Virus record (IMG/VR): IMGVR_UViG_3300035208_006730
DNA: 64,000 nucleotides
Source: a virus
Taxonomy: Duplodnaviria > Caudoviricetes
Direction: 5' to 3' (one strand)
Part shown: in pieces, positions 2,619 through 41,770 of the stretch
Layout: the number at the start of each line of letters is the position of its first letter
How positions within the stretch are numbered: the stretch's first letter is position 1
Notes under the pieces: model-generated
What the model saw: only the letters and a program-made list of their open reading frames with translations
The model's database searches: none
What the model was told of the DNA's origin: nothing
Position numbers and translations under genes: made by a program

Positions 2619-5600
2619 CTATTTTAAAATTGGACCCGTATATCCTTGATTTCTATCATTCAAAAGATATCCACCAAAATCTCCCTTGATCCAATTCCAG
2701 TTCTCAGGAGAATATTCGTATGCAGCATTATCAAGAGCTTTAGAAAGACCAGAAGCTCCTTCAGAAATAAACTTGAGACCATCCCAAAGCATCCCACCTT
2801 GAGTGTACTTAGAGGTTAATCCGTGAATAAGAGGTTTATCTTTATAAATCAGTGGATCAATTCTAAACGGATGTGCGTACTGAGAAGATGCAACAATTTT
2901 TCTCATTAACCATTTTAATGGTCCTCCTAAAACGATGTCTAATGCTTTCAAGGGACCTGCAACTGCAGTCTTACCAACAGTACCAGTAGCATTAATTAAA
3001 CCCTCGCCCTCTTTAACAAGTGCTCTAGCTCGAGTAACTTGATCCTTTAGCCAGTCACCAGGCATATATTCAGCTACAACTCTTCCCATCAATTCGTCAG
3101 TTGAGATAGTAGCGTTCTGATTAATGTGGATTACTGCATTAGGAGTAATCTCTGAGATGAATCCATTAACCTCATTAAATTTATGGATCACAGATTCTAC
3201 TTCTATTGGTCCATACATGTTGGTGTGATCATCGGCTATAAAGACTATATCGAAAGGTTTTATGGCAGGATTACCGATAATAACTATTGATCCTTGATAG
3301 GATTTTTTCAAAAGCCTCCAAAGAAGTCCGATAGCGTACCTTTTCGCCTGAGACTTTCCGATACAATTAGGGTAGGTCATAAACAATTCTCTGGTATCTT
3401 CATCGGAAATGTCTTCATCGGCTTTCATCGTTAGAATTGCGGGTTCTCGAGAAACAAGTCTTCCAAACTCTAGATCTTTGGTTTGTTCATCACGTAGCCA
3501 TGTTGTATCTGAATACTGAACTGCAACGGCATTAAAGACGCCCTTGGTTCTTGAAGAAATATTGTTAGCTATAATGTCGTATTTGTCTGTGATTAGATAG
3601 TAGTTTCTAAATGGTTTAACGATATCCATCTCTTCAGCTAGCGTGTTTTTAAGAGTAGTAAAGAAGGCGACCTTATCGACCTTTTGGAATTCTGGATCTT
3701 GCAAAGATTTGGTTAATCCTTCTATTTCCGAATTAGACATTGTAGTATTGCGCGATAGAATTGATTTTAACTTCTCTTCTGTAAGATCATCTGTTGGATT
3801 GCCACTTTTAATATCGTCGACAAGTCCCGCCAAGTCTTTCGCAAAGTTAGCTTCATTGGGATTAGGGTCTCTTGAATAATAAAGTTGATTTGGCATTCCA
3901 AAATACATTGTCATTCTAGCGCCCCAGGAAGCGGTGTACGGAACTGCTTGAGCGATGAATCCTGGATGACGAATACACATCTCTTGGAATACGTCCCAAA
4001 TGGTAGTACGAAATAGTTTATAAGGATCAGATGACTTGAACATTGAAATACAAGTTGATCCACCTGGGGCGAAAATATTTAAATCCTCAGGTTTTTCTGT
4101 GAATTGGAATTTTTGGGTAAGAGTGTCATAAAAATCTCCCATACCCTTTTGACCTGGTTCCCAGCGTCCAAAGTGAACGAGTTCTGGCTCATTCATTAGT
4201 TCATGGAGCAAGGGTCCAGTATCTCCAGTCTTTGTAAAAAAACCACCATAATTAACTGAGTCCTCAATCCCCTTCATTCTTGTTATTAGTTCAGTACCAT
4301 AACTTTGAGCAACAATATTTAGTAGATCATCTGATTCTGAAAATTGCACCTCTGTAATAACGCCGTGAAAATTATTGTTTAAAAATAAAGGATTATTGGA
4401 ATATCCAAGACACAGTTTTACATGTATCCCTGGCTTAACAACAAGAGATATTAACGGATTTTCTTTCTTAGAGTCAACATCTCGAGCTTTCGTTTTTCCC
4501 TCGTTTTGAGCAATTGGATTATCGAATGGTTGGAGTTTACCTGTCTCAGTATTCATTACATTCTGAAACTTTCTATTAGATAGAATTCCAGAGATATTTG
4601 TCAGTTCAAGAACTATGATATCGGCTGCAACGTTCTGATTCATAACGTGCGTAATATCTTTAACTGAAGCGTAACTAAAGAAGTCATCAAAACCATATTC
4701 TCTACGCTCACCATAATCTGACTCGATGAAGTAGAGCTTGAACGTTGGCCATGCTTTCGCAAGACCTCTACAAAATCCTTTATTCATATTTCTGGTATGT
4801 TGACGGATTAAGCGAGGAACAAGTCCTGTTGTTTCTGGAGAATTGACTGAAGTTAGTTTGTCGCAGATTCGGACGTTACCCAGAATCTCTAATGGGGATT
4901 GATGCGCTCCATCCTTTAGGATCATAAAGTGAAGATGAACTCCAGTTGAAATTCCAGAACTTCCCATGATAGCAATTGGCTCTCCACCTCGAACAAACGG
5001 TTGGATACCCCTTGCAAGTGAAGCTTTCCAATTGTCGAGATAATACCCGTCATCTTTAAGGTGGGAGTAACTCGATGTCCATCCATTACCATGATCAATC
5101 TTAATATATCCAACGGGAATTTTTATTCCTTGATCTCGACGACGAAGAACTTCTGCAGCGGAATAAGTCTCTCCAATATTACAAGCTACAATTTTTCCTG
5201 GAGCAGCTGCTTCAATCACAGTCTCAAGTCCACTACTCCCAATATCGATACCGTCATGTTCCCAGTTTTCTTTCCTCGCTTTGTCTAACTGACGTTGAGC
5301 ATCAGCTTCGGAGATAATTCCTTGTTGTGTTTTTTGAGATAGCGCTGCAATCTTTTGTTCAATAAATGGATTTGGACGTGACCCATATGGAGACGTAATA
5401 TTGTGATTCTCGAAAGCATACACAGCAGGAACTGGCCAACACCATTGCTGTGGACCAGTTTCCATTGAACTTTCAGTTCCAAAGGTTTCTCCAGCTAAAT
5501 AGATTTGACCGTCTTCGAGAAGAGCTTTACCTCCTAGAATGTGTTTGATTCTTTTGCTTTCATCTTTGAGTCGATCTGGGAGTTTCTGTTTTCCGCCAGA

Positions 5601-8543
5601 ACGTCCAGAACAGTTCCAATACTGAGATAAAGGGCTACCATCTTTAGTTTTGGTGAAATCGAGAACTGATGTTTCGGGAAGATAATCGTCATTGCCTTGT
5701 GAAGACGTAAATACATCACTGATAATAGTTCCTTCTGGAAATTCATCAGGAACACAAAGCTTAGCCTGTTCTTCAATTGCTTGTTTTATTCCAGATGCTC
5801 CTTCTGGAATCTTGGGTTCTTTCCCCTGTTCTTTTAGTTTTTGTTTTGCAGCCTCAATATCTCCCGCGTCTGCAACTTCATTTGAACTGTTTACATCTCC
5901 AGATGTCCAACGATAGATCTCTCTTGTCCAGTCCTTTTTCTGCGTTTTAAACTTCTTTTGACGTTGGGCATTTTCGTTACTAAGTTTATCTAGTAATGTG
6001 TCATGCGCTGTTTTGTATTCTTCGAGATGAGTTTTTACGACACTTTTTATTTCTTCAATTTTTGTTTCATCAAGTTTGGTTCCATCTGATATTTCATTGA
6101 TTAGGTAGAATGATGGATCGATTAACGATTGTGGAGATATGCCCGCAGTTAAAAAGGAACCTTTATTCCAAGAATTGAAGAGGATGTCATCAAATTTTTT
6201 ATTACCATAATCTCCAAGAAGAGATAAAACCTCTTTCATTGGAAAATCAGGATAGGCACACGAAGTTCCCGACTGTTTAGACTTTTCGTACTCTTGGCGA
6301 AGAACATCAGAGAACAATGGATCTCGAAGAATTCCATCGGCAACGGCGTTATCGATAATCTCTTTGAGACGTTTTTCATAAACAGTGAATGACTCTTTAA
6401 TTATCGAAGTCTTATTTGCTCCAGCAAAACGAGAAATGTCGTTCAGTTCACTAAGAAATGAAGCTCCCAATTGCTTTAAAACCCCTGCCTCAGAATTCTT
6501 TATCCCCTGAAGTTCTTGTTGTCTAGCATTGGCGGTATCAAGACGAGTTTTATTGTCCGCTTCTTTTCCTGCTTCTGCTAATTGAGAATAGTCTTGAAGC
6601 TCTTGATAGATACTATCGAGCTCTTGGCTTTTGTTCCGAATCTGGTTTTCTAGATCTGCTCTTCTGTCAGGAGTCGCGTTCTGTAGTTGAGATTTTAACT
6701 GACTTAAATCATTCTTTACGGCATCTTGTCTTTGCGAAAGAGAATAGGCTTTTGCGTCTTTTTCTTGATTAACTACAGACAGAGTTTTAGGTTGAACGAT
6801 ACCTTGAGATATTCTGGAGTCCCAAAGATCTTTTCTAACCTTTTCTATGCCTGGCCATTCGGAAACATTTGTTCCCATTATTTCAGATAAAGAAGTTTTG
6901 TCATACAATCCACCTGGATACCAAAGAACAGAATGGAGATAGGTTGAAAGTTCTGTCATTAAGACAGAGACTTCTGACATCACTTTAAACTGAACGGCAT
7001 TTCCTCTAGACTCCATCTCTGCTTTCGAAAGAACTGGACTATACAGAACGGATGTAATACCATAATTTGATGCAGCATATAAGGTTCCCTGTCCCTCAAG
7101 ATAGATAGGGATAAGAGAACGATGAGAAATAGTTTTGCCTAAAGGTAACCCAACAATGGATTGAATTAGTTTTGTTGCAATTTTTTTGCTACGTTCCCAG
7201 TCGCTTGTTGCAAACTCTCTTCCGAATTTTTGTTCTAAATCTTCGTACCGATTAGAAGACACTAGAAGGTTAATCGCAAATGTATCTATTTGTCCTGGTA
7301 TTGTATTCAGGGTAAATTGTTCGACAATAGTCTCATCAACTCCGCAGAGATTAATGATGTCGTTTCCTATCATTAAGGATCTAATACCAGCAGGAATGTC
7401 CTTGAATTCAATCTCCTGCCGTTCTATCGCAGTGTACATCTGATGGATTTTTGCGCTCGCTTCTTGTCCATTTCCTATCATTTGAATTTGTACGGCAACA
7501 TCTGCACTTCCAATATGCTGATAGGTTGCGTACTGTTGTCCAATAAGAGGAATAGTTGCAAGGCGATGAGAGAATGAAATGTCTAGTCCAGTTGTTGTAA
7601 TAGAGTTCGCTTTTGTTGATAGTCGGGTAATGCGCGAGAAAAGAGGTTTTCCATGATAGATCATCTCTTTTCCATTCAGATTCACAGGTTCCCATTCCAA
7701 ACCTTTATAGGTCACAGTTCTATTTTTCTCGTCCTTCATCACAACATCAGAAAATACATCGAAATACATTGAGGTAGTAAAACCAAGAAGTTGATTAACC
7801 GATGTGATTTGTTCTGAGGTGAGAACGGAAATGCGCTTTGAAGTCTCACTTGCCCCTAATTTAAGTAACTCACTTTTAGCTTTCGAATCTGCATCTGACT
7901 TTATTTGCTTAAACTTTTCAACAGTTTCTTGTGGCGATAAAACGTTTCCTTGTTCGTTTTCTATCACAGGAGCAAGAAATTCACGAAAAGCAAAAGTAAT
8001 GTTGTCTGAAAGTTCTCCCTGAATGGCCCTGTATTTGCCTCGATTAATTTCAGCTTCAGTTAGGATATTCCAGGCTAAAGAATTTTGGGGAAGGTTCGTA
8101 CTTTTACGACCAAAGACTTCTACTCGATACTGCCAAATATCTGTGTATGGCTTAAAGTTGAACCAAACAAAATCGAAGAGAACTTTAATGACGTTAACGT
8201 CAGTATCATTCTTTCTAATATTGATGTGCTTGCACGCGAGAATTATTGGGTCTGTCGTATCGCCATGATAGATAGTATTCCGAATTAACTGATTTTCAAC
8301 GTAGCAAAACGGGACAACTCTGAGTTGTGCGACTATTCTTCGGAGTTTTTCCCAGCCTTCTTGGTCAACAAAACTTGCTTCAACTCTCACCGATAAAATT
8401 GTATGTCCGCTTTTTATTTTAACTGAGTTTCTAGTCCTCAGAGTGTACCATTCATGGTTAAAGGCTTGTTCTGAAATGCCTATTGCCTGAGGCGGGACTG
8501 AAAACCCGACATCATTTAAGACAAAACTACCGGAATCTTCCAT
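2619..8543 (-). CDS. Giant baseplate hub/tail protein with internal M23 peptidoglycan endopeptidase
   Basis: 1974 aa; M23 motifs ITSPYGSR, HDGIDIG, IDHGNGWTSSYSHL, GSSGISTGVHLHF (~4900-5400); hub-like C-terminal segments (LCLGYSNNP..FHGVITEV; GSIVIIGNPAIKPFDIV). Confidence 0.8.
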   Translation of the reverse strand: MEDSGSFVLNDVGFSVPPQAIGISEQAFNHEWYTLRTRNSVKIKSGHTILSVRVEASFVDQEGWEKLRRIVAQLRVVPFCYVENQLIRNTIYHGDTTDPIILACKHINIRKNDTDVNVIKVLFDFVWFNFKPYTDIWQYRVEVFGRKSTNLPQNSLAWNILTEAEINRGKYRAIQGELSDNITFAFREFLAPVIENEQGNVLSPQETVEKFKQIKSDADSKAKSELLKLGASETSKRISVLTSEQITSVNQLLGFTTSMYFDVFSDVVMKDEKNRTVTYKGLEWEPVNLNGKEMIYHGKPLFSRITRLSTKANSITTTGLDISFSHRLATIPLIGQQYATYQHIGSADVAVQIQMIGNGQEASAKIHQMYTAIERQEIEFKDIPAGIRSLMIGNDIINLCGVDETIVEQFTLNTIPGQIDTFAINLLVSSNRYEDLEQKFGREFATSDWERSKKIATKLIQSIVGLPLGKTISHRSLIPIYLEGQGTLYAASNYGITSVLYSPVLSKAEMESRGNAVQFKVMSEVSVLMTELSTYLHSVLWYPGGLYDKTSLSEIMGTNVSEWPGIEKVRKDLWDSRISQGIVQPKTLSVVNQEKDAKAYSLSQRQDAVKNDLSQLKSQLQNATPDRRADLENQIRNKSQELDSIYQELQDYSQLAEAGKEADNKTRLDTANARQQELQGIKNSEAGVLKQLGASFLSELNDISRFAGANKTSIIKESFTVYEKRLKEIIDNAVADGILRDPLFSDVLRQEYEKSKQSGTSCAYPDFPMKEVLSLLGDYGNKKFDDILFNSWNKGSFLTAGISPQSLIDPSFYLINEISDGTKLDETKIEEIKSVVKTHLEEYKTAHDTLLDKLSNENAQRQKKFKTQKKDWTREIYRWTSGDVNSSNEVADAGDIEAAKQKLKEQGKEPKIPEGASGIKQAIEEQAKLCVPDEFPEGTIISDVFTSSQGNDDYLPETSVLDFTKTKDGSPLSQYWNCSGRSGGKQKLPDRLKDESKRIKHILGGKALLEDGQIYLAGETFGTESSMETGPQQWCWPVPAVYAFENHNITSPYGSRPNPFIEQKIAALSQKTQQGIISEADAQRQLDKARKENWEHDGIDIGSSGLETVIEAAAPGKIVACNIGETYSAAEVLRRRDQGIKIPVGYIKIDHGNGWTSSYSHLKDDGYYLDNWKASLARGIQPFVRGGEPIAIMGSSGISTGVHLHFMILKDGAHQSPLEILGNVRICDKLTSVNSPETTGLVPRLIRQHTRNMNKGFCRGLAKAWPTFKLYFIESDYGERREYGFDDFFSYASVKDITHVMNQNVAADIIVLELTNISGILSNRKFQNVMNTETGKLQPFDNPIAQNEGKTKARDVDSKKENPLISLVVKPGIHVKLCLGYSNNPLFLNNNFHGVITEVQFSESDDLLNIVAQSYGTELITRMKGIEDSVNYGGFFTKTGDTGPLLHELMNEPELVHFGRWEPGQKGMGDFYDTLTQKFQFTEKPEDLNIFAPGGSTCISMFKSSDPYKLFRTTIWDVFQEMCIRHPGFIAQAVPYTASWGARMTMYFGMPNQLYYSRDPNPNEANFAKDLAGLVDDIKSGNPTDDLTEEKLKSILSRNTTMSNSEIEGLTKSLQDPEFQKVDKVAFFTTLKNTLAEEMDIVKPFRNYYLITDKYDIIANNISSRTKGVFNAVAVQYSDTTWLRDEQTKDLEFGRLVSREPAILTMKADEDISDEDTRELFMTYPNCIGKSQAKRYAIGLLWRLLKKSYQGSIVIIGNPAIKPFDIVFIADDHTNMYGPIEVESVIHKFNEVNGFISEITPNAVIHINQNATISTDELMGRVVAEYMPGDWLKDQVTRARALVKEGEGLINATGTVGKTAVAGPLKALDIVLGGPLKWLMRKIVASSQYAHPFRIDPLIYKDKPLIHGLTSKYTQGGMLWDGLKFISEGASGLSKALDNAAYEYSPENWNWIKGDFGGYLLNDRNQGYTGPILK

Positions 8544-8551
8544 GATGACCT

Positions 8552-11500
8552 CTAGAAAAGTTTATTAAGTATGGTGTCCATATTGAGAGTCGATAGGTTA
8601 TCTCTCACGGTTATTGTTGAGTTATTCACGTTTCCCACTATCATCTTCATTGCGCCTGCAAGTCCAGCTGGATCGTTATCACTATCTTTTGTGTACAATC
8701 GAGCATTTACATTATACCCTCTATTTGATCCTATCATGGCTGTTGGTGACATCAAATGAGAAGGAGCCGAAGGACTACCTAAAGATGAAGTAGAAGTTTC
8801 TGTATCTCCCTGCCGAAGAGAAGCTTCGCTAGTATGGCGAACTGGTTTCGAATAGAGAGATGCGGCATCACCTGAAGAGCGCATTCCAACTAGACTTTGA
8901 GGTGTATTTGCCATAGCCGCAAGACCAAGAGCAATGCCAGCTCCAATCGCTATTGGTTTTGCGTATTTTAATGCTCGTTTACCGTCAGCTATTGAAATAT
9001 TACTCGCCGCCATTTCTAAGCGAGAGAGCATGCCCATTGTTCCCTCGCCCTCTGTCATTCTTGCCATAGACTTTACGTAGTCTTTTATGCCTGCAGCTGA
9101 TGGAGAGATTTTGGATTTGCCAGCCATTTTTCTAAATTCTTCAAGGCGACCAGAACTTTTGAAAGAGTCCCGAGAACCCGCTATTGTCCTTGCCGTTTCT
9201 TCAAGATTAATTCCAGAAACAGAAGAGCCCATATCGACGCCTAACCTTGATTTCGCTTCTCTTGCGAATCTTTCTGACACTGGCATATCTTGACCAAGAG
9301 CAGCTTCAATGTCTGAACCAAAATTTTTACCTAATAATCCTCTAAAATTTTCAGCTATTTCAGAAGACGTACCAGAAGAGATCGCTCTTTTAGTCGCTTC
9401 AAGACTTTGGCGCAGTTGGTCGGTTTTTCCAACTATGTCACCTGCGGCCATATGCTTGGCAGAAATGGGGAGTTGTTCCATTAACTCGAGCATTGAAAGT
9501 GCTGTAGACTTGTTAGCATTTCCAGAAGCAGATACGGAAGCCTTAGCTTCGCTCAATACTGTAGACAATTGTCCAATAAAACTTTTTGTTGCCTCATCTT
9601 TTCTAAGGGCAACTTTCGTTAAATCTGCAAGGGTAAACTGATTCATTTCAGCTACTGCAGATTGGGCCTTTGGCTTAATTGTTTGTACTCGAATTGCGTG
9701 CTCGAGGTAGGCACGAAGACTTGTAGCGTCCCAATACTTCGACGCTTGTTCTGCAGTCTGTCCCTTCAGCAGCATCAGACCCGCAAAGTCACCATCGAAG
9801 TCTGCAGCCATGCCTGTAACTGCAGAAATATTGATTCCATCTATTTTAATTTCTGGCATGACCATTACGGCTTCTTTTGTATTGGTCGCAAGACGATGGA
9901 TATTAACTGGAACAGTTGAGTAGGGACCAATGTTAGGATGTCTCCAAGCTACTCCAGAAACAGTTCCTTTTGTCTTCCACTGCTCCTTTAGTTCGGCCAA
10001 TTCCTCAGGAGAACCTTCCATTTCAGCGGACATCTTGTTAAACCAAAAATCAGAAATTCCCACTCCAAATGGATCTTGAATTGTTTCATCCCCAATTTTT
10101 GATGCCAGTTGAAGAAAGCGACTTCCAGTTATTTTTTGATTTGGATTAATTCTTCCACGATAAAATCCGCCAACACCCTTTCCAAAAGGTGCCTGTTCAG
10201 CCTGAATGTTTTGTGCAGCTTCCCAGTATTGTTTTTCGAAAGCTTCAGAGGTGATATCACCTGACTCTAATCCAGAAAGCCCTCTAGCTAAATTTTGATA
10301 GGTTCTATAGAGCTTTCCTCTAAAACCTCCCTGCATTTTTATCGCATCAATATCTGGTACGTAAATATTCTTTGCTCCAGTAATCCAACCCCCACCGCCC
10401 TCAACAAATTCAGCAAAAGCTTTCGAACTAAAATTCGAACTAGCTTCAAATCGACGATCACCTCTTCCTGGCATACCACCAGCAAAAGAAGAAAGAGACT
10501 TTAATAGCTCTTTAGATACAACGTTTTGTTCTCCTGGACCTGATAGGCGCGATGAAAATTCCGAAACAAGTTCTTCGCCTAATGGTCCAAGGTGTCCCTG
10601 TCCAAGCATTTCAATTGTTCTTGGCTCTATAGTCGCTCTGCGGTTGTATCCAAATCGCTCACTTCTCGGACCACCGTGAGTTGCCCAAATAACGCCTTTC
10701 GCTGTACCAGTTTCAAAAGCTCTAGTTTCTCTTTGAGTAAGCGGATTATCAAGATACTTCCCAACATCTTCTTTGTAGTTTTGACCCAACACAGTTGGAA
10801 CTGCACCAAATACTTCTCCTAATTCCTGTTTAGTCAGACCCTCTGAACGAGCGGTTTTAACTAATTCAGCAACTGTTTGAGCGTGGATATATCTACCTTG
10901 ATTCTGTTCGGTAATAGTTTTTGTTAAAGAGTTAAAGTAGTTCCTTGGGTCATTAATTCCAGAACTCATTCCTCGCTTTTTTCTTGCTTCAATGGCTTCC
11001 CAGAGTCGAGTTGCCATCTGTTGGTAATGTAGATGTGGCCCCTTTTTTAATGCATCTATGTCTGCAATTGCCTGTACTCCCTTACCTGCAAGTCCAATAA
11101 TTTTTGATCCCTCATCGAAAACCATACTCCCCTTTAGTCCAAAGATCTTTTCTTGGGCTCTCAAGGGTAACTCTTCTTCTGTCTGTAGGATGATGTTGGA
11201 ATCTTGAATCGTCTGCCCAAGAATTTTTAGATTGCGTCCTGCAGTAATTGGATTTCCCATTGGATCGTTTCCAATAAATTCCCCTTTACCAACAGACATT
11301 GTCCCAGAGGTATCAAGTCCTTTAATCACATTTGTCGCAAGACTTTCTAGTCTCATTTCAGCTTCTCGATATCCCTTACCGTAGGCCTTCATTTGTTTGG
11401 CGACAATTATTTCTCCATCTCCCATGAGCCGTCCAAATGTCTGCTGTCTCTGCATAAATGCTGTTCGCATAAAGAAAGCGTTTGAACTGCCAAGAAGATC

Positions 11501-12889
11501 TCCTGAGGGACCATAAACTCCAAACATATTCAAATGAGATTCCGGCAAAGACCACAGATACTTATTCTGAATGGCATCAAGGTTCTTTCCAAGAGAAGGT
11601 TCCCATGCGCGCATACCAAAACGTTTTACGGCTTGACCAGGAGCTCGAGCTTCAGGAACACTTTCTGCTCCCATATAAAGTTGACGTACATCGTATGTAG
11701 CTAAAGCTCCTCTAGTTTTTGATGTTCCAGAAATACCTCCAGAAAAATACTTGGAACCAAGACCTCCCTCAATCTCTGGAATTGAAGCAGCTTCAGTCGC
11801 CCGCACAGGCTTTCCGTCTAGACTGGAAAATAAAGTCGTTTGAGAACGGATATTGACATAACCTCGTAACTGAGAAGAATAACTTTCAGGTGAAGTCAGA
11901 GGGATATTTGTTAGACGTTCTCTGACTTCTCGAGTCAATTGTTTTCCGATTCCTCTTTTTTCTCTTCCAGACAGTTCGTTCAACCTGCCATAATAACTCC
12001 CTTTGAATCTTTCTATAATGTATTGTTCTGGCAAAAGGTCCTGAGCTACAACGGTTCCAGTACCAGGGTCAATAACGGAAAATTTACTCGCAATGTATCG
12101 AGACGAAAGGTCCTTACCAAGAACTACAGAACCACCTGAAGAGATTGGAACATTAAACGAAACACCACGATCTGCGAAGGTAAATCGATAAGAGCCATGA
12201 CCCGTTGCAGCAAGATCGGATCTTGTTTGATGAAAGATACGAAAATCCTTATTCTTTTCTAAAAATTCTTTAGCGTATCCCTGAATAGCTGAAGGCAGAC
12301 GGTTGTACGCCTGAGGATTAATTAACTGGGATTTAATACTATTTGGAGATCTAACGCCTTGTGTGGCGAGCATTTCTTGGGCCATATTAACTGCGAATTG
12401 ATGTGGATTTTCTATTGGAGTATTCGCAATATCTGAAAGAACTTTACTATAGGTCCTTGAAAATATAGGTTTATTTCTTGAGAACGACTTAATAAATTGA
12501 TTGCGGATACCAAGAGGTAGCATCTTAAGTTTGTCTCTAAATAAATTCTCCATAGAGCCAATAGGATTTTCAAATTGACTTGGATCTAGTTCTCCTCGAA
12601 AATTTTCAGGTATATTATCCAATGCTTTTTGCCATGCCCAAAGAATACTTTCGGCAGATCCAGAAAGAGCTCTGGTTGCAAAATTTGAAACTTTATCTCC
12701 CATCAGCGGACCAGCAGAAGGGATAGTTCCTGGATAACGACCCATATTCGCTAATGAATCAAGAACATTAGATTTCGGATTCATTCTTGTTATTATATTT
12801 TGACCCGCGATTACTCCTCCAATTACCACAGGAGAAAGCATCGCAAGATCCATAAAGCCTAGACCATTAGTTCCATTATTATCTGCCAT
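8552..12889 (-). CDS. Single-chain two-barrel (DPBB) DNA-dependent RNA polymerase, probably virion-packaged
   Basis: 1445 aa; beta-like MRTAFM..GDGEIIV (D491) and EKIFGLKG (K581/K586); beta'-like GKGVGGFYRG..KITGSRFL, WRHP (R983) and AADFDGD (D1030-D1034); sits inside the tail gene cluster. Confidence 0.8.
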   Translation of the reverse strand: MADNNGTNGLGFMDLAMLSPVVIGGVIAGQNIITRMNPKSNVLDSLANMGRYPGTIPSAGPLMGDKVSNFATRALSGSAESILWAWQKALDNIPENFRGELDPSQFENPIGSMENLFRDKLKMLPLGIRNQFIKSFSRNKPIFSRTYSKVLSDIANTPIENPHQFAVNMAQEMLATQGVRSPNSIKSQLINPQAYNRLPSAIQGYAKEFLEKNKDFRIFHQTRSDLAATGHGSYRFTFADRGVSFNVPISSGGSVVLGKDLSSRYIASKFSVIDPGTGTVVAQDLLPEQYIIERFKGSYYGRLNELSGREKRGIGKQLTREVRERLTNIPLTSPESYSSQLRGYVNIRSQTTLFSSLDGKPVRATEAASIPEIEGGLGSKYFSGGISGTSKTRGALATYDVRQLYMGAESVPEARAPGQAVKRFGMRAWEPSLGKNLDAIQNKYLWSLPESHLNMFGVYGPSGDLLGSSNAFFMRTAFMQRQQTFGRLMGDGEIIVAKQMKAYGKGYREAEMRLESLATNVIKGLDTSGTMSVGKGEFIGNDPMGNPITAGRNLKILGQTIQDSNIILQTEEELPLRAQEKIFGLKGSMVFDEGSKIIGLAGKGVQAIADIDALKKGPHLHYQQMATRLWEAIEARKKRGMSSGINDPRNYFNSLTKTITEQNQGRYIHAQTVAELVKTARSEGLTKQELGEVFGAVPTVLGQNYKEDVGKYLDNPLTQRETRAFETGTAKGVIWATHGGPRSERFGYNRRATIEPRTIEMLGQGHLGPLGEELVSEFSSRLSGPGEQNVVSKELLKSLSSFAGGMPGRGDRRFEASSNFSSKAFAEFVEGGGGWITGAKNIYVPDIDAIKMQGGFRGKLYRTYQNLARGLSGLESGDITSEAFEKQYWEAAQNIQAEQAPFGKGVGGFYRGRINPNQKITGSRFLQLASKIGDETIQDPFGVGISDFWFNKMSAEMEGSPEELAELKEQWKTKGTVSGVAWRHPNIGPYSTVPVNIHRLATNTKEAVMVMPEIKIDGINISAVTGMAADFDGDFAGLMLLKGQTAEQASKYWDATSLRAYLEHAIRVQTIKPKAQSAVAEMNQFTLADLTKVALRKDEATKSFIGQLSTVLSEAKASVSASGNANKSTALSMLELMEQLPISAKHMAAGDIVGKTDQLRQSLEATKRAISSGTSSEIAENFRGLLGKNFGSDIEAALGQDMPVSERFAREAKSRLGVDMGSSVSGINLEETARTIAGSRDSFKSSGRLEEFRKMAGKSKISPSAAGIKDYVKSMARMTEGEGTMGMLSRLEMAASNISIADGKRALKYAKPIAIGAGIALGLAAMANTPQSLVGMRSSGDAASLYSKPVRHTSEASLRQGDTETSTSSLGSPSAPSHLMSPTAMIGSNRGYNVNARLYTKDSDNDPAGLAGAMKMIVGNVNNSTITVRDNLSTLNMDTILNKLF

Positions 12890-15800
12890 TGAAAGCGTCC
12901 CTTAATCCATCTCTTACGTCATCAAATCTATCCACTTCTAATTCTACACTGGATGAGTTCATTCCTAATAGGGAAAGTTGCTGAGTCATTGTAAAATTTC
13001 CCTGAAGATTATCTCTCTCCATCAAAGAATTCATCTGATCTCTAATCTCTCCTTCTGAATACTGTTGTCCAATCTCTTGAACGCTTTGATTATTTACCCA
13101 AGGCTTGTATCTTGATGCCATTTCTCTATCTGGCCAAAGATTAAAATCATGAAATTCTAATCCCTGTTTTTGCACGTATTTCAGCTTCAAATCATCAAGA
13201 TCAGCCTGTGGATGGAAGCCTACCCAGTCAGGCCCAGGCATCGATTTCTCTTTCAATTGCTTTGGAACTAAGTAGGTTCTACGATACCAATCCGCATAAC
13301 TCTCTCCAGTAACTCTGGAACCGTAATACTCCTGACGAAGTTCGTCATTTACTGGAAATCCAGCAGATGTGGCCAAAGATTCAATTTCAGCTCCAGCAAT
13401 TAAAGCGTCCTCATTGTCTGTTTTCTTTGCCGCTTCAGAAAATCTTCGTTGCCATTGAGCGATGTAAATTGGACGCATTTGTTCGGGAACCATCTGAAGA
13501 ATCTTTTCTCGAGCTTCAGGAGAAGTCTCCATTCTAAATGCGTCAAAATAAGACCTTTCTCTGGCTGGTATTGCGGCCATCAAGTCCTTGAAATTCATAG
13601 TGTATGGATTAATACCAGTTAATGTTTGCTTACTTGATTTAACGTATTCATCGGCCAAATCAAGATCGCCTGCTTCAAATGCTCGAGTTGCTAACGTTCT
13701 GAACTTAGCGTATTTTAGCGCATCGAATTGTTCGTCAATCTCTCTTTGTTCTTGAATCCGATCAGGGATTCCATTCCATCCAAAGGCATGAGCCGTAGAA
13801 GAAGCAAATGGGGAAAGAAAGTTTTGAATAGGTTTATTCCAAAATTTGTTGGAAGTACCATAAATCATATCTTTTTCATAATCTTCAATAGCTGTGCGCG
13901 CATGCACGAACTTTGCAAATGGAGCCATTGGAGTTAACTGTTCAAGAGAAGTCTCTGCTCCATGGCTAATCCATTCCCAATAGCCACCAAATAGAGATCC
14001 AATAATACCTCTATCTTTTTTACCTGAAGCGTTTTCCTTATTAATCTCGGATAATACTTTTGATTCTAATGAGTTGCCAGTTTCAAATGGTTCAAGAACT
14101 TCGTACTCTGAAAAACTTTTTTTCTCTTTCTTTGCTTTTATTTGTTCGATAGTTCTGTTAAAAAGTTCCTCTTCGTAGTCCGTCCAATTTCCAGATGACC
14201 GCTGCATTCTAATGCCAGCTGCAGCTGCTTTGTATTTGGAAGAATATGGGGCTACATCGGCAAGAATTTTCCAGATATGAATGAGAGGATAATCTTCTGG
14301 ATCTAGACCAGCAAGCTCTGGATAACGTTGTTCGTAGCCAAGACCAGGGAGACGCACTTCCCCGAGATCAATCTTTGCGAATGGATCACCAGAACGAAAG
14401 TCTTCCGATAGATCTCCTGTATCAGGCATCCATTGTGGCATCTGGTTTCTAATAGGATTGTATGTCTGAATGCTTTTTCTTTTACTTGGATAAAGACGCC
14501 GATACCATTCGCTTAATCCTAAGGCGCCTCCAAATCCCTCTTCCCAGAAAGATTTTCTGGCACTAGTAATTTCTCCTGCAGCTTCCAATTGGCGTTGATC
14601 TGCAAAGAAATCTGGAGAACCAGTTAACTCTTCCTTGAGTGAAGAAAATAAGAATCCAGGAAGACCTACCATCTCACTATTATGGACTAGACAATCTTCT
14701 GCATAATAAATATGAGTATTTTCTACTTCAAGATCGTAAAGATCTATTGATTCCATATAAATATCTTTAATATTAGTTATTTTTTTGAAGATGAAATAAT
14801 AATTATTGTCTTCTTTTATGAAGTTTCTAGTAGTATTTGTTTCGCCTACAGCAATTGGACGCGATAATTTAAAACCAGATTTACCTAATTGTCTTAATTT
14901 TTGAATATTTGTTCTAAAAAGTCCAAGTCCATAATTTTTATATTTTTTTACTTGTCCATTTTTTTTGATTGTGGAGTAACCAGATGTATTTGAAACCAAT
15001 ATACCCAATTGATTAAAAATATAGGTTAATTGTTTCTGCAGAGTTAAACTAGATTGATTACATTCTAATTCCTTTTCTCGAATATGGAAATCGCCATCTA
15101 TAAAACCATTAATTAAACCAAGAAGAAACTCTCTATTCGAAGATAATAGAGATGCATGGATTATTTTATGGCTTGGTAATCCGATCAAAGTTCTGAATAA
15201 TTGACTTATGGCCGTACTGCATATACTTGTCTCTACTCCGTTCCCTATAATTCCATCTTTTTCCTTTCTCCACCATGTAGTTGTCCCATTATAATTAAAT
15301 AACGTTTTCATTGATTCGAATAACTTTTTATAATGAGTTTCAGTTTCAGAGATTTCTGCAGCATAACTAATTTGGGTGTTACTTGGAGACCCTTCCGCTA
15401 AAGTATATCCGCATAACCAACCTAAATCCCAAGTAAGTTCGAGCCTAATTGGAAGACTTCCTGCGTTCTTATCTAAATAGTCGCATTCATAATTATTATT
15501 TGGTCGTTTTACTAAAGTTCCCTTATTGTTTAAATATTCACAACCCTTTCTTAGAAAAGACTTTTTAATTCTTCTATAAATGGTATTTCCTTGGATTCCA
15601 AAATTATTCATATCCAAAATATCAGGTAAATATAGGAATTTTTTTTCGTTAATTATCTTTGGAATTATTTCTACTAGAAAATCGCCCTTATCCAGATTCT
15701 TAACGGAAAGCCATTCAGGTTTGTAATTTAAGTAATGAGGATGAATACATCTTTTACAGTGATCTCCATCATGACTTCCATGAAGACTGCAATTATAGTC

Positions 15801-18800
15801 CTTTGCGCTACAATATTTAGTTTTTAGCGCAAAAACTTTATGATTTTCTGTTACCTTTAACTTTTGGTAAGTATTAGTAAGAGATATTTCCTTTAGGACA
15901 TCTTTCTGGATATTTTTTCTTTTAAATACTTTGGTTACTTTTTCGAAAGAACTGTGTCCCCATACAAACTCCTTTTCAACTATATTCCTTATTTCTTTGT
16001 ATGAACTATCTGCCATACGAATCCGCGTATCTTCAGTAAAACACATACGATACATCTGTTCATTAATCGTTTGACTAAGAGAGTAGGGAGATATAGCTTC
16101 GCCTTCTGGAATTTGGCCTAATTCTTCTGAAAATGTTTGTCCATATCCAAGAGGGTTAGATAACTGTTGTCCATTTTGCATCCATTCAGAGGTATGCATT
16201 TTCATTTCAGGTTTAATTACTTGCCCAATAGTAGCTCCAAGTAGAGGACCAATCAAAGGGACCTCAGAAAATGCGGGACTTGAATTATGGACAATACATG
16301 TCGTTAAAAACGATTGTTCTTTTTCTACTGTGATATCAAAAACATCTCCTTCATATGGTATTTCCTTAATTTGTCTAACCGGAATATAGAAGTTGTCATT
16401 ATAAATAAGTCCCTTTCTATCTCCAGTGGTTTTAATGCATTTAACTTCTTCTTCGAATAAAGAAAAGTTTTCAAAGCCGAATCCAGTTATGCTTAAGTAG
16501 TAATGAACATTTTTCGGAATTTCACGTCCATTAATAAGAGCTTTTTTCCAGTTCTTTTTAGGAACTGCCTTAGTGAATGATACGGGAATACCAATACTTA
16601 AAAGAAGTAATCTTAACTGATTTGTTAGATAAGATGAAGCAGATGTAAATGTGATTTCATTTTTCTTTTTTGTAGAGCCATCTCCTCGAATTAATCCCTT
16701 AGCAAAAGCCTGTTTCAATCTTACTGGCCAACTTAAATAGTCTAGAGAAAATCCCTTTTGAGGAGCATGTTTTTTTTCAAAAAGACCATCTAAGATTTCA
16801 CTTAAAATTCTAGAATACACTCTTAATTGAACACCGTTCTCACTTTTCTGACTAACACTTGTATTTGCTTGAAATTTCTTCATAACTATTTTCTGTATAT
16901 CGGCGATATATGTAGGTATCTCATTTGAATTAAAAGCAAATCCAACTTGATCTTTGCTCGTAAAACCTTCTGCTAAGAATAAGCCGAACAAATATGCCAT
17001 ATCTTCGTCTATTTCTAGGTATCTATCTAGAAATTTTTTATAGCCGTTTCTTTTTCTTAAATCCCATAAAAGAGAATATTTAACTAAAAATGTCTTACTA
17101 GCATCTTTTATTGAAAGATTTGAGTAAAAAGCATCTACTACATTTTGAGTCGCTCTTCTATCGTAAATAATCTTATCTTTTATATAGGCACGTCCTGTTA
17201 ATATAGCTAAATCTATAATTGGATTTTTTTCTAAAGAAGTAATTTTTCTTGCTGGCACAACAACAAAATCATGTCTTTTAATGTCTTTTGCTGGAATCCA
17301 TTCAAGACATCCTGACTTTATCGCTTTTATTTTTTCTCTATTTCTATCTCCTCTTTTTTGATAAGTTAAATGGTTTTTTAGACATAAAATTTTATGTTGA
17401 GGAGTTACTAAAAGTTTTCTGTTATCGGCGGCTATTGTAATTTCTATGAGCTTTCCTTCTGTACATTTTCTGCTTGTTTTTTCGATAACAGTTGTCCACT
17501 CATTATCTCTATTTAAAACCTGATCGCCCCTTTGAATATGAGATATGTTTTTAAAACCTTCAATTGTATAAACTGGCGTATCAGGATGAAAACACATTGG
17601 GTATGGCCGATCCCAGTAATGAAATTTTTCTATATCGTAAGTAAAATTCTCTTTCCATGTTTTGGTAAACTCGGAAATATTGTCTGCGCCTTCTCCCCAT
17701 ATTTGTTTATCTCTTGCTCTCCAAACCATTCTTGGAAACCAGTGAGGAGCGTAATAAGCTTCATTAGAACCTTCCCACTTGGAGTTGCCCATCTCCCAAA
17801 AAGCGCCCTTACCTACAGGAACTTCTTCTTCTCCTGAGTAGATTCTACGGAGTTTATCGGGACGATCTGATGGAATAAGGGCTCCTGGGATAAAGGGAGA
17901 AACAATGGCTGCACCAATGAAAGCCCCAAGACCAATAGCTAATTTTTTAGGAGTGAGATTTTTAAAGATACCGCCACGCGAAATTAAATTTTTGCCTAAT
18001 TTTCCAAACCAAGATCCTCCAAACTCACCAACTGTTTCCATTGCGGCAGCTCTAGCTGCCTCGAGATTCATTCCTGCTCTTTGATTCTTAAAAGTTTGAT
18101 AGACCCGTTCGCCGTAGGTGCTAACGGAACCAACTATCCATCCAGCTAGAGGGAATCCGGCAAGTGCTGAAAGATTTGTGCTTCCAGGAGCTGCTTCTTC
18201 TTGCCATTCTCGATATCGGTGAAGCCCCATAGTTTCTGCAGTAGAAGAAATGGAAAGATTTCCTTGAGCCCAAAGAGAGGCAATACCTGTCGTAATACCT
18301 TCATTAAAAACTGTCTTATCGAAAAGTAGATTGTTTCTTACTAATCGATCTGCTTCAGAATAGAGAAGATAGCCAAGAGGCGCTACAGCTCCCCATTTGA
18401 GAGATAGCCGACCAAGAGTAGAAAGAGCTCCACCAGGTTTAACTCCCAACCCATACTTAAAAAATTCTTTACCAAATGGGAGCCTTTTCCCTAAACTTTC
18501 TAAATATTTATATCCTCTGCCAATTACTGGAAGATCAGAAGGCATTTGAAGAAGACGGTTGTATCGTTCAACTAATTCTGAAGCAATACCACTAACTTGT
18601 CGTTTCGCAGCTTGAAGTTTAGAGTGTCCACCGATAACCTGAACCCCGAAACTGGGATGGAGTTGTTCTTCTCCTGAACGGGAAAAGACTTCTGTTAATT
18701 TGGCTCCTTCCCAATTCGTCCCGTAATCATCTACTCCCAAGGCTCTTGCATATCCGGCTGAGTAGTGAGACGATGTTTTGAAAATATCTGTAGCCGTTGT

Positions 18801-19250
18801 GTTGAGAACTACCGATGCATGCTCTAGAGCTATATCCTGGGAGCTGCCCCAAAATAATTTATTTCCAGAAAAAGACAAGCCAGTTGAACCTATCTTCTCA
18901 GGTTTACTGCCGATGAGTTTCGAGAGATAGGTTAATTGTTCAGGGTTATTACTTAGAAACTCTGGACTAATGAATATTGGACTTTTCGCTTCAGATGTAA
19001 ATTGACTAAAGAAATTCGATAATTGAAACGTTCGGAGAAACCCACCAGGTGAATACTCTTCTGCAGTCCGAATGGCTCCTACGAACCGGTCATATCCCAG
19101 TGAGTTACCAAGTTTGGCTTTGCCGAGTAAATGGAGTCCAGTTACTCCACCACCAATAAGGGCCGTATTTGTTAGAAGATTAGATTGAGACGGAAGCTGA
19201 TCTTCGTCTGACCAAAGAGGTTGAGGGACAAAATCTAAAAATGTCGCCAT
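12879..19250 (-). CDS. Tape-measure-position virion protein with two inteins (~1231 aa spliced)
   Basis: Follows the tube and chaperone genes; several Gly/Ala-rich hydrophobic helices in the N-terminal 470 aa; two C...HN-S inteins. Confidence 0.6.
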   Translation of the reverse strand: MATFLDFVPQPLWSDEDQLPSQSNLLTNTALIGGGVTGLHLLGKAKLGNSLGYDRFVGAIRTAEEYSPGGFLRTFQLSNFFSQFTSEAKSPIFISPEFLSNNPEQLTYLSKLIGSKPEKIGSTGLSFSGNKLFWGSSQDIALEHASVVLNTTATDIFKTSSHYSAGYARALGVDDYGTNWEGAKLTEVFSRSGEEQLHPSFGVQVIGGHSKLQAAKRQVSGIASELVERYNRLLQMPSDLPVIGRGYKYLESLGKRLPFGKEFFKYGLGVKPGGALSTLGRLSLKWGAVAPLGYLLYSEADRLVRNNLLFDKTVFNEGITTGIASLWAQGNLSISSTAETMGLHRYREWQEEAAPGSTNLSALAGFPLAGWIVGSVSTYGERVYQTFKNQRAGMNLEAARAAAMETVGEFGGSWFGKLGKNLISRGGIFKNLTPKKLAIGLGAFIGAAIVSPFIPGALIPSDRPDKLRRIYSGEEEVPVGKGAFWEMGNSKWEGSNEAYYAPHWFPRMVWRARDKQIWGEGADNISEFTKTWKENFTYDIEKFHYWDRPYPMCFHPDTPVYTIEGFKNISHIQRGDQVLNRDNEWTTVIEKTSRKCTEGKLIEITIAADNRKLLVTPQHKILCLKNHLTYQKRGDRNREKIKAIKSGCLEWIPAKDIKRHDFVVVPARKITSLEKNPIIDLAILTGRAYIKDKIIYDRRATQNVVDAFYSNLSIKDASKTFLVKYSLLWDLRKRNGYKKFLDRYLEIDEDMAYLFGLFLAEGFTSKDQVGFAFNSNEIPTYIADIQKIVMKKFQANTSVSQKSENGVQLRVYSRILSEILDGLFEKKHAPQKGFSLDYLSWPVRLKQAFAKGLIRGDGSTKKKNEITFTSASSYLTNQLRLLLLSIGIPVSFTKAVPKKNWKKALINGREIPKNVHYYLSITGFGFENFSLFEEEVKCIKTTGDRKGLIYNDNFYIPVRQIKEIPYEGDVFDITVEKEQSFLTTCIVHNSSPAFSEVPLIGPLLGATIGQVIKPEMKMHTSEWMQNGQQLSNPLGYGQTFSEELGQIPEGEAISPYSLSQTINEQMYRMCFTEDTRIRMADSSYKEIRNIVEKEFVWGHSSFEKVTKVFKRKNIQKDVLKEISLTNTYQKLKVTENHKVFALKTKYCSAKDYNCSLHGSHDGDHCKRCIHPHYLNYKPEWLSVKNLDKGDFLVEIIPKIINEKKFLYLPDILDMNNFGIQGNTIYRRIKKSFLRKGCEYLNNKGTLVKRPNNNYECDYLDKNAGSLPIRLELTWDLGWLCGYTLAEGSPSNTQISYAAEISETETHYKKLFESMKTLFNYNGTTTWWRKEKDGIIGNGVETSICSTAISQLFRTLIGLPSHKIIHASLLSSNREFLLGLINGFIDGDFHIREKELECNQSSLTLQKQLTYIFNQLGILVSNTSGYSTIKKNGQVKKYKNYGLGLFRTNIQKLRQLGKSGFKLSRPIAVGETNTTRNFIKEDNNYYFIFKKITNIKDIYMESIDLYDLEVENTHIYYAEDCLVHNSEMVGLPGFLFSSLKEELTGSPDFFADQRQLEAAGEITSARKSFWEEGFGGALGLSEWYRRLYPSKRKSIQTYNPIRNQMPQWMPDTGDLSEDFRSGDPFAKIDLGEVRLPGLGYEQRYPELAGLDPEDYPLIHIWKILADVAPYSSKYKAAAAGIRMQRSSGNWTDYEEELFNRTIEQIKAKKEKKSFSEYEVLEPFETGNSLESKVLSEINKENASGKKDRGIIGSLFGGYWEWISHGAETSLEQLTPMAPFAKFVHARTAIEDYEKDMIYGTSNKFWNKPIQNFLSPFASSTAHAFGWNGIPDRIQEQREIDEQFDALKYAKFRTLATRAFEAGDLDLADEYVKSSKQTLTGINPYTMNFKDLMAAIPARERSYFDAFRMETSPEAREKILQMVPEQMRPIYIAQWQRRFSEAAKKTDNEDALIAGAEIESLATSAGFPVNDELRQEYYGSRVTGESYADWYRRTYLVPKQLKEKSMPGPDWVGFHPQADLDDLKLKYVQKQGLEFHDFNLWPDREMASRYKPWVNNQSVQEIGQQYSEGEIRDQMNSLMERDNLQGNFTMTQQLSLLGMNSSSVELEVDRFDDVRDGLRDAFNGR
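14679..16043 (-). mobile_element. Intein with LAGLIDADG endonuclease (455 aa)
   Basis: YRM|CFTEDTRI...LYDLEVENTHIYYAEDCLVHN|SEM; WLCGYTLAEG and GLINGFIDGD motifs. Confidence 0.92.
16284..17594 (-). mobile_element. Intein with LAGLIDADG endonuclease (437 aa)
   Basis: PYPM|CFHPDTPV...VTPQHKI...VFDITVEKEQSFLTTCIVHN|SSP; YLFGLFLAEG and FAKGLIRGDG motifs. Confidence 0.92.
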
Positions 19251-21960: not shown

Positions 21961-21989
21961 TTCAACCTCGAGGAAAAAGTTCCTGACTA

Positions 21990-22018
21990 ATTATACTGAA
22001 TTTTAGTGAACTTAGGAA
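21990..22018 (-). promoter_or_regulatory. Candidate internal promoter TTCCTA-N17-TATAAT
   Basis: Perfect -10 in the gap after the tube gene; same layout as 2589-2617. Confidence 0.4.
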
Positions 22019-41324: not shown

Positions 41325-41770
41325 TAGACATCGCTTTCGGTCGCGGAAACCTTAAATCGTACGGTCTTTAGCCGTTGAACTGGGATAGATGCTGGAATTT
41401 CGATTCGAATCCAAACTGGTAACCAAGTATTGGTGTCAGTAAGATCTGAAAGATCTATTTCCCCTGGGGAACCTGGGATAGCGTAGTTAATTGTTGACCA
41501 TTCGTCTGATGTTGGTTGTGTATCGCCCGCGAAAAGTTTGAAAGAAAATCCATCATCTCCACCAACAAAATCGATCTCCAAAGTGTCAAATTGCTCGATT
41601 GACATAGATATATCTTCGTAAACGTGCAAACTGTCATCGTTTCTTACGAAAATTTTTACTTCATGGATACCACCAATTCGGCCATCGAAGTTATGTAAAA
41701 ATGCGTTAGTGAATGTACCAGAACTATATGGGGTACTGTCGCCCTGATTTTCGTAGAGCTGAATTGACAT
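41324..41770 (-). CDS. Hypothetical beta-rich virion protein
   Basis: 148 aa; coupled to the terminase stop; PVWIRIEIP motif. Confidence 0.5.
   Translation of the reverse strand: MSIQLYENQGDSTPYSSGTFTNAFLHNFDGRIGGIHEVKIFVRNDDSLHVYEDISMSIEQFDTLEIDFVGGDDGFSFKLFAGDTQPTSDEWSTINYAIPGSPGEIDLSDLTDTNTWLPVWIRIEIPASIPVQRLKTVRFKVSATESDV

Follow-up and report, generated by a model that had tools for sequence, protein, structure and literature searches.

A very diverged two-barrel RNA polymerase-like protein encoded in the tape-measure slot of a contractile-tailed phage

To our knowledge, two-barrel RNA polymerases (RNAPs) delivered with the virion are proven in few phage groups, i.e. crAss-like phages, P23-45-like Thermus phages and, as multisubunit enzymes, phiKZ and AR9. 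The authors of the work on P23-45 propose that its tape measure is metastable in the tail tube and that the polymerase, at the envelope pore, transcribes the pre-early genes as DNA enters (PMC10770324). In Bacillus phage 0305phi8-36 the tape-measure role of gp146 was assigned mainly from tail length, and conservation among the homologs of orf146 is confined to its final 60 residues (Hardies et al. 2007). We analysed a gene, P0001, carried by a stretch of 64,000 nucleotides (the window) that is part of the 158,879-bp linear IMG/VR record IMGVR_UViG_3300035208_006730 (Caudoviricetes), about 83% complete according to CheckV:

8552..12889 (-): P0001, whole gene, 1445 amino acids (aa), a tail-module protein of the tape-measure slot that resembles a single-chain two-barrel RNAP

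The open reading frame (ORF) is open over its 1445 codons, as a preliminary description of the sequence had placed it. Its 5' end overlaps the upstream gene, P0002, by 11 nt and its 3' end is 8 nt from the downstream gene, P0003. Our reading of P0001 combines three claims: that it is a very diverged single-polypeptide two-barrel RNAP, that it is catalytic, and that it is delivered with the virion and starts early transcription. As a combination this reading is reasonably likely. Its parts are graded separately below.

The fold was predicted with AlphaFold2 for residues 180–1200 of P0001, from an alignment of 56 sequences and with no templates. The model has a predicted local distance difference test score (pLDDT) of 88.9 and a predicted template-modelling score (pTM) of 0.88. 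Structural matches divide it into the following parts:

10640..12295 (-): beta/Rpb2-like half, residues ~199–750, from structural matches by VIA-align and Foldseek
9329..10483 (-): beta'/Rpb1-like half, residues ~803–1187, from VIA-align and beta' clusters of the ESM Atlas
9764..10123 (-): beta'-like double-psi beta-barrel, residues ~923–1042, which matches isolated double-psi beta-barrel domains

Foldseek against the PDB gave 51 matches at E<=1e-3, and the best 50 of these 51 are all RNAP chains, including Pol I A135, vaccinia Rpo132, bacterial beta, AR9 and phiKZ nvRNAP, and QDE-1. When Foldseek's top 995 chains were rescored, 981 reached a Z of at least 8; the 50 listed of these are all RNAPs. 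A VIA-align search of 48,161 representative chains, independent of Foldseek, placed beta/Rpb2-type chains on model residues 19–570 (Z 11–15) and beta'/Rpb1-type chains on model residues 624–1008 (Z 8–10.6). For the beta-like half the VIA-align scores are 15.2 and 14.2 with AR9 nvRNAP (7s01_C and 7s00_C), 13.2 with both phiKZ nvRNAP (7ogp_C) and E. coli beta (5uac_C), 13 with Pol II Rpb2 and 12.3 with A135. For the beta'-like half they are 10.6 with human Pol I A190 (7ob9_A), 10.1 with Sulfolobus RpoA' (2pmz_A), 9.8 with Pol II Rpb1 and 8.3 with M. tuberculosis beta' (6edt_D). Isolated double-psi beta-barrels fall on model residues 743–874, the segment that contains DFDGD (7dbo_B, Z 7.5, 84 of 86 residues, root-mean-square deviation 2.3 Å; CDC48-N 9uw1_A, Z 8.8). 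Both halves are spanned by single-chain enzymes: QDE-1 (Z 12.3), RDR2 (Z 10.7), the two P23-45-type polymerases of Thermus phages, P74 gp62 (Z 11.2) and P23-45 gp96 (Z 9.4), and phi14:2 gp66 (Z 6.3). The best ESM Atlas match is to proteins of ~1000 aa with PF00562 and PF00623 (Rpb2_6 and Rpb1_2), with a TM-score of 0.56 over 685 residues.

The two barrels that the preliminary description had proposed to look for in such a model are thus both present as double-psi beta-barrel modules, beta then beta', and all the strong matches are RNAPs. This order, the two lysines in adjacent strands and the DxDxD of the second barrel (see below) fit a single-chain two-barrel polymerase. From the model, the core of P0001 almost certainly has the two-barrel polymerase fold.

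Conservation was measured mainly on the alignment of 56 homologs with 22–31% identity; a second alignment contains 32 homologs. From the N- to the C-terminus, the elements of interest are:

11411..11419 (-): [ED]-G-[EQ] motif D491-G492-E493, beta-like barrel; G492 invariant, position 493 E or Q in 40 of 56
11132..11149 (-): lysines K581 and K586, beta-like barrel; K581 is K in 55 of 56, K586 is K in 53 of 56 and R in 3
10115..10183 (-): GKGxGG...GSRF block, residues 903–925, counterpart of beta' GKQGRFRQN...SGRSV; G903, G907, R911, G912, G922 and S923 conserved
9935..9943 (-): R983-H984-P985 motif (cf. beta' NRAP); P985 invariant, R983 and H984 at least 90%
9788..9802 (-): catalytic-type DFDGD (D1030, D1032, D1034); all three Asp invariant in the 56 and in the 32 homologs
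9527..9631 (-): 35-residue helix, residues 1087–1121, candidate bridge helix; DSSP helix at model residues 908–942, within the beta'/Rpb1-aligned stretch
9452..9490 (-): LEQxPISAKH block, residues 1134–1146, at the tip of a helix-loop-helix; E1138, I1142 and K1145 invariant, H1146 at least 90%

The residues that are invariant in the 56-homolog alignment include D1030, D1032, D1034, G492, K616, Q624, E755, R757 and P985. The DFDGD loop, inside the barrel segment, has the family consensus GDxDAD, and its DxDxD stays invariant after the addition of more distant members. K581 and K586 lie in adjacent predicted strands (model residues 402–413). The motifs had been picked from the letters alone, with codon coordinates that are exact (D491 11417-11419, K581 11147-11149, K586 11132-11134, WRHP 9935-9946, DFDGD 9788-9802), and their positions are the most constrained of the family at 22–31% identity, i.e. 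more than chance resemblances. The conservation expected of the catalytic residues is found for K581, K586 and DFDGD but not for D491 as an invariant residue: this position is acidic in 49 of the 56 homologs (E in 40, D in 9), and it is its neighbour G492 that is invariant instead.

The GKGxGG...GSRF block lies 127 aa N-terminal of DFDGD; in E. coli beta' the equivalent spacing is ~124 aa. From their order and their secondary structure in the model, we infer that the helix 1087–1121 is a candidate bridge helix and the LEQxPISAKH block a candidate equivalent of the trigger loop. In an active enzyme the beta-like half would supply the two lysines and the [ED]-G-[EQ] loop, and the beta'-like half the Mg-binding DxDxD loop, the RHP motif, the bridge-helix-like helix and the trigger-loop-like hairpin. 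Judged on this conservation and on the model, P0001 has very probably retained catalysis.

By sequence, P0001 is a member of a large, unannotated family. When 1.84 billion cluster representatives were searched exhaustively with phmmer, 116 relatives emerged, of which 102 reach E<=1e-10 and 68 reach E<=1e-30; the clusters are defined at 50% identity and the count is a lower bound. Nearly all the members have 1430–1590 aa and none of the relatives carries a name. Pfam and PHROGs have no match to P0001. None of the Pfam RNAP families reaches E<=1 with P0001 or with the 32 relatives scanned, so that the gathering threshold for canonical RpoB/RpoC is missed; these 32 members match no Pfam family at all. 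Neither phmmer against the PDB nor hmmsearch with the family profile gave a match there, tblastn of P0001 against 50,697 phage records gave none, and a feature search of the ESM Atlas gave no usable match. The family profile compared by hhalign with residues 1–1200 of P23-45 gp96 shows no homology (probability 0.1%, E 0.57). In the literature searched, the family as such is found in no description. The suggestion that P0001 represents a distinct lineage is therefore borne out at the level of sequence, by the silence of Pfam on 32 members and by the lack of a profile match in the PDB and of an hhalign match to gp96.

P0001 lies within a co-oriented run of late genes of a large, uncultured contractile-tailed phage and is the middle gene of a late-operon trio made of a gp145-like virion protein, P0001 itself and a gp27-type hub with an M23 lysin. 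Its two partners are:

12879..19250 (-): P0002, upstream partner, 2123 aa, with two LAGLIDADG inteins and an extein of ~1231 aa, ortholog of ME3_35
2619..8543 (-): P0003, downstream partner, 1974 aa, baseplate hub protein with an M23 peptidase domain (Pfam PF01551; tblastn)

The trio is kept in all nine IMG/VR loci read (of 12) and in three further metagenome loci, as a protein of ~1270–1350 aa (longer with inteins), a polymerase-like protein of 1416–1548 aa and an M23 protein of ~1970–2035 aa. It is also found in two cultured phages. In Acinetobacter phage vB_AbaM_ME3 it comprises ME3_35 (1263 aa, virion structural), ME3_36 (1603 aa, hypothetical) and ME3_37 (hub). In 0305phi8-36 it comprises gp145 (virion structural, by mass spectrometry), gp146 (2537 aa) and gp147 (hub); gp146 is annotated as a “hypothetical tape measure protein” and was found in virions by mass spectrometry.

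The family of P0002 matches ME3_35 by hhalign with a probability of 100% (E 4e-101), and the ME3 record annotates ME3_35 as homologous to the virion structural protein gp145 of 0305phi8-36. P0002 is thus, by sequence comparison, an ortholog of ME3_35 and a virion protein. The C-terminal part of P0003 matches by tblastn ME3_37 and ORF147 of 0305phi8-36, both annotated baseplate hub. With these two neighbours, P0001 occupies the slot of gp146. P0001 had been placed between a tape-measure-position gene and the baseplate hub; the hub stands, and the upstream gene is tape-measure-like by position only, its predicted fold (see below) speaking neither for nor against such a role. Likewise P0001 is probably not, as had been proposed, a gene apart whose product leaves along with the tape measure: it is itself in the tape-measure slot, which brings it nearer to the P23-45 arrangement than first assumed. 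The gp146 slot and the shared C-terminal module (see below) suggest that the core may be part of a tape measure; the annotation of the slot derives mainly from a correlation with length.

The two inteins of P0002 (residues 553–989 and 1070–1524) are 80 aa apart. Its family, often invaded by inteins, is 40–70% identical across metagenomes, i.e. much better conserved than the polymerase. The AlphaFold2 model of a P0002-family protein is compact and mostly helical (pLDDT 81.7, pTM 0.78) and corresponds to no known fold, with no PDB match (best Foldseek E 0.25, best VIA-align Z 5.8). This strong conservation and the inteins suggest that P0002 has an enzyme-like or otherwise tightly constrained role.

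The relation of P0001 to the two cultured phages was examined further. ME3_36 has REP(1174)...GGDHDQD(1217), with a spacing equal to that of RHP...DFDGD, and its BFVD entry A0A172Q021 (two chunks, sum 1603 aa) matches the P0001 model by Foldseek (3e-7 and 2.6e-5). At the level of sequence its match to the P0001 family is not significant (E 0.017–0.15), the family HMM profile finds nothing in the ME3 genome, and BLASTP finds no match between ME3_36 and gp146. The latter has no alignable polymerase core. Neither ME3_36 nor gp146 is described as a polymerase in the literature searched.

The core of P0001 is flanked by extensions of 200 aa (N-terminal) and 250 aa (C-terminal), each with one conserved Gly/Ala-rich hydrophobic segment, the C-terminal extension ending in a conserved module:

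12788..12862 (-): N-terminal Gly/Ala-rich hydrophobic segment, residues ~10–34; Kyte-Doolittle maximum 1.9, position kept in ~28 of 32 homologs
8906..8965 (-): C-terminal Gly/Ala-rich hydrophobic segment, residues 1309–1328; in most members, 127–137 aa before the end of the protein
8555..8767 (-): conserved C-terminal module, residues ~1375–1445, common to gp146 of Bacillus phage 0305phi8-36 (hhalign)

Hydrophobic helices had been noticed at both termini, and both recur across the family: ~28 of 32 members and also ME3_36 have a segment at residues ~8–35 and another ~123–137 aa from the C-terminus. The distance of the latter from the end is 123 aa in ME3_36 and 128 aa in gp146, which has the C-terminal segment only and no N-terminal one. 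The termini of P0001 and P0002 show no similarity to each other. Residues 1382–1440 of P0001 align by hhalign with the C-terminus of gp146 with a probability of 82.5% (E 9.8e-6), and with another alignment the same comparison gives 54.6% (E 1.2e-4). Judged by these profile comparisons, the C-terminal module of ~60 aa is homologous to the C-terminus of gp146.

P0001 contains no Cys, nor do its 32 aligned relatives, ME3_36 and gp146. The average of the phage proteome is 1.38% Cys, from which ~20 would be expected in P0001. Genes of at least 250 aa number 54 in the record, and only 4 of them are without Cys: P0001 and the genes for a tube-like protein, for a product of 258 aa and for a 1151-aa protein that combines a staphylococcal-nuclease and a kinase-like domain. 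The P0002 extein (1231 aa) also has none, all 17 Cys of P0002 being inside its two inteins, and 6 of the 7 intein-free P0002 homologs examined have none. Avoidance of Cys would be expected of proteins that cross the oxidising periplasm unfolded, and its extension to a whole family may serve as a signature of tail-ejected proteins.

The 1151-aa protein (window 48716-52171, minus strand) lies beside the packaging genes and combines the staphylococcal-nuclease domain (PF00565, E 1e-13) with the protein-kinase-like domain. It is a candidate for a second ejected enzyme.

A role in the virion is circumstantially better supported since the trio is kept, the C-terminal module is homologous to that of the virion protein gp146 and the family is free of Cys. 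Delivery of P0001 with the virion and early transcription by it are probable. P0001 would be built into the tail or the virion via its C-terminal module. Contraction would then expel it through the tail, and it would cross the periplasm without oxidisable cysteines. Its hydrophobic segments may anchor it at the inner membrane, where it would transcribe the first phage genes, its presumed template, and possibly help to draw the genome in.

Further transcription genes were searched for in the record. The PF00623 and PF00562 models are silent on the whole 159-kb record and positive in 14 of 14 control genomes. Neither a T7-like RNAP nor a sigma-70 region 2 (PF04542) was found in the record; the PF00940 search matched no control genome and thus carries no information. 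The family profile finds no paralog in the record, only P0001 itself. The phage encodes DnaE, a PHP domain protein, RecA, a DnaG-type primase-helicase and a ribonucleotide reductase. Promoters were sought in 46 upstream regions by exact k-mer counts and one-mismatch k-mer enrichment, and the sole motif obtained is the GGAGG ribosome-binding site. Related contigs have 185–205 kb, against 158,879 bp here; the record being linear and incomplete and its sister contigs longer, early genes may be missing from it.

A 675-aa ORF with AADADGD (genome C1:32770-34797 (+); L002:12770-14797) was considered as a non-virion polymerase and rejected: it is Laminin_G_3/ConA-like, contains 12 Cys and is not matched to the family by hhalign, and its AADADGD is a chance match.

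Several points weigh against P0001 being a virion-delivered RNAP. The fold of its core rests on prediction, and no RNAP was recognised by Pfam, PHROGs, phmmer and hmmsearch on the PDB or hhalign to gp96. The folded globular core of ~1000 aa is too large for the lumen of the tail tube, so that, to be packaged, the protein would have to be unfolded or metastable, or else be located in the head. The sole member of the slot with proteomic support, gp146, is without DxDxD; the presence of P0001 in virions is thus transferred from a relative that is non-catalytic and barely alignable. Finally, the intergenic regions of the record, from which the early region may be missing, yielded no promoter-like motif that recurs.

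A more detailed proposal can be made, in which the large contractile-tailed phages of the 0305phi8-36/ME3 type form an ancient and widespread lineage whose tape-measure-slot protein is a membrane-anchoring RNAP. Once the tail has contracted, it would leave in an unfolded state and regain its fold at the inner membrane, with its two glycine-rich helices beside the DNA entry pore, then start pre-early transcription and pull the genome in by transcribing it. The gp146-like relatives would have lost the polymerase core, and transcription would have moved to a separate YonO-like enzyme. In full this proposal is doubtful. If it were true, tape-measure-linked polymerases would be a general and repeatedly used solution, not a curiosity of Thermus phages.

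The absence of DxDxD from gp146 also bears on what the slot is for. P0001 could be a tape-measure or ejection protein with a structural role, in which a core derived from a polymerase has ceased to transcribe genes; its acidic loop and lysines would then serve some other transfer of nucleotides or grip on nucleic acid, e.g. in priming, in RNA-templated synthesis (as in QDE-1 and RDR2) or in gripping the leading DNA end. In 0305phi8-36 the slot is annotated tape measure, so that what is essential about it may be structural; the promoter search gave no such motif, and the RNA-templated QDE-1 (Z 12.3) and RDR2 (Z 10.7) are among the best whole-chain matches. This is nevertheless unlikely: more than 100 diverged clusters have conserved DxDxD, the lysines, RHP and the bridge/trigger-like block, which speaks for an enzyme that still catalyses, and among characterised phage proteins its closest analogues, P23-45 gp96 and phi14:2 gp66, both transcribe DNA templates (PMC10770324; bioRxiv 10.1101/2020.03.07.982082). 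As to priming, a phage with a DnaG-type primase-helicase and DnaE does not obviously need a second primase.

The fold and the motifs are silent on the site of action, and P0001 could also be an active two-barrel RNAP that is not carried by the virion and works in the producing cell, e.g. on middle or late genes. With no other RNAP and no sigma factor found in the record, a polymerase of its own for later genes would be useful to the phage. We consider this quite unlikely. The 11-nt overlap upstream, the 8 nt to the hub and the maintenance of the trio in every locus read, in ME3 and in 0305phi8-36 tie P0001 to the tail genes; a C-terminal module like that of a virion protein, two hydrophobic segments and the lack of Cys have no obvious use in a cytoplasmic enzyme. 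Furthermore, a polymerase expressed late cannot make the early transcripts of the same infection. That the likeness to polymerases is an artefact of prediction or a chance motif in an unrelated tail protein is very improbable: no sequence method detects an RNAP and AlphaFold models can be over-confident, but a model with pLDDT 88.9 and pTM 0.88, built from 56 sequences and no templates, led two independent structure aligners and three libraries to RNAPs for both halves in the correct order, and the positions required by RNAPs coincide exactly with those that are invariant.

The surroundings of the trio are those expected of a contractile-tail module, as the preliminary description had it, with a sheath, tube-like genes and a baseplate wedge gene:

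3-713: baseplate wedge gene, among baseplate genes
20193-22705: three tube-like genes, co-oriented late run
22718-24649: sheath gene (phrog_16991, E 4.9e-70)
30875-32134: major capsid gene, co-oriented late run
35338-38814 and 41770-46032 (-) in the window, and genome C1:38838-43628, 54887-58612 and 6329-10189 (+): genes bearing inteins or endonucleases

Inteins and homing endonucleases are unusually frequent in this phage: there is one LAGLIDADG intein in the portal, two inteins are carried by the large terminase and one each by the DnaE-type PolIII alpha and the DnaG primase-helicase, and the ribonucleotide reductase has an HNH insertion.

Other proteins resemble the P0001 model. ME3 (KU935715) has a second protein of 798 aa (BFVD A0A172Q0S6) that matches it with a Foldseek E of 6.5e-10 and TM-scores of 0.39/0.48; a PF00623 search of ME3 found nothing. 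From these predicted structures, ME3 may have both a tail-slot polymerase and a separate smaller two-barrel polymerase, like P23-45. Among BFVD models of proteins from other phages, cultured cyanophages included, that are uncharacterised or annotated as tail proteins, A0A8S5SD80 (Siphoviridae sp. ctnpt50, “Minor tail protein”) resembles the P0001 model with an E of 4e-14 and A0A075BUT7 (Microcystis phage MaMV-DC) with 3e-4; the match of A0A7J4 (Ma-LMM01) is weak (E 1e-3, probability 0.57). Such model likenesses indicate that polymerases hidden in tail proteins may be more widespread than the P0001 family.

What is new here is probably a tail-linked two-barrel RNAP in contractile-tailed phages, as a 1445-aa protein of the tape-measure slot with the lysin in the adjoining hub. 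To the few proven groups the family adds more than 100 diverged clusters that are invisible to Pfam, PHROGs and sequence searches of the PDB, in contractile-tailed phages of 160–200 kb. The link of the slot to gene 36 of the cultured Acinetobacter phage ME3, a “hypothetical protein”, makes it testable at the bench. Our results suggest that transcription enzymes lie hidden behind many of the “tape measure” and “minor tail protein” annotations of large myoviruses. If the polymerase is truly part of the length-determining or ejected core of the tail, the question arises of how a globular enzyme of 1000 residues is stored in the tube and passed through it.

Compared with known systems, the core of P0001 is closest in its architecture to the fused beta-beta' mini-RNAPs of the ESM Atlas (PF00562 and PF00623, ~900–1000 aa, in phages and Chloroflexota), which have the same barrel order in one chain. 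They are its best whole-chain matches (TM 0.56 over 685 residues, and 0.45/0.50), along with QDE-1 (Z 12.3) and RDR2 (Z 10.7). They differ in that they score on the Pfam RNAP models, whereas the P0001 family scores on none, and they have neither the terminal hydrophobic segments nor the tail-slot C-terminal module; none was seen in tail operons. The multisubunit virion and non-virion RNAPs of the jumbo phages AR9 and phiKZ, independent of host subunits, give the top single-domain Z for the beta-like half (7s01_C 15.2, 7ogp_C 13.2), but they comprise four to five distinct polypeptides, which can be recognised from their sequences, and the head is where they are packaged, in contrast to one chain from a tail operon here.

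phi14:2 gp66 (PDB 6VR4) is, as proposed for P0001, a virion-delivered single-chain two-barrel RNAP with DFDxD, bridge helix and trigger loop; it is encoded within a block of giant genes and transcribes early genes. Its structural match is weaker (6vr4_B, Z 6.3, 468 residues), the shared core alone being aligned. With 2180 aa, it has ~1600 residues of unique domains, including a cleft-blocking one; such additional domains would not fit into P0001, which is shorter by 735 aa. gp66 is moreover packaged in the head of a podovirus-like virion and is not encoded in a tape-measure slot.

gp146 of 0305phi8-36 and ME3_36 share with P0001 the same slot in the trio, the C-terminal hydrophobic segment 123–128 aa from the end and the absence of Cys. 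gp146 has in addition the common C-terminal module, but is 2537 aa long, without DxDxD and without an alignable polymerase core; ME3_36 has REP...GGDHDQD and the Foldseek match to the P0001 model.

P23-45 gp96 is likewise a single-chain two-barrel RNAP with DFDGD in the tape-measure slot of the tail module (PDB 8H2M/8H2N; PMC10770324), and both proteins are linked with hydrophobic or transmembrane segments and a metallopeptidase. Its Z of 9.4 over 343 residues comes with 15% identity, the highest among the matches listed. P23-45 is a siphovirus with a fusion of 5002 aa, against a contractile tail and 1445 aa here. In the present phage the hub, encoded by the adjacent gene, carries the M23 peptidase, and a virion protein of 1231 aa, separate from the polymerase, precedes it; a second polymerase of the gp64 type was not found in the incomplete record. 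In its predicted structure, the core of P0001 thus resembles the fused beta-beta' mini-polymerases, QDE-1 and the jumbo-phage enzymes. The nearest characterised system in terms of function is P23-45 gp96, and by descent P0001 belongs to the slot of gp146 and ME3_36.

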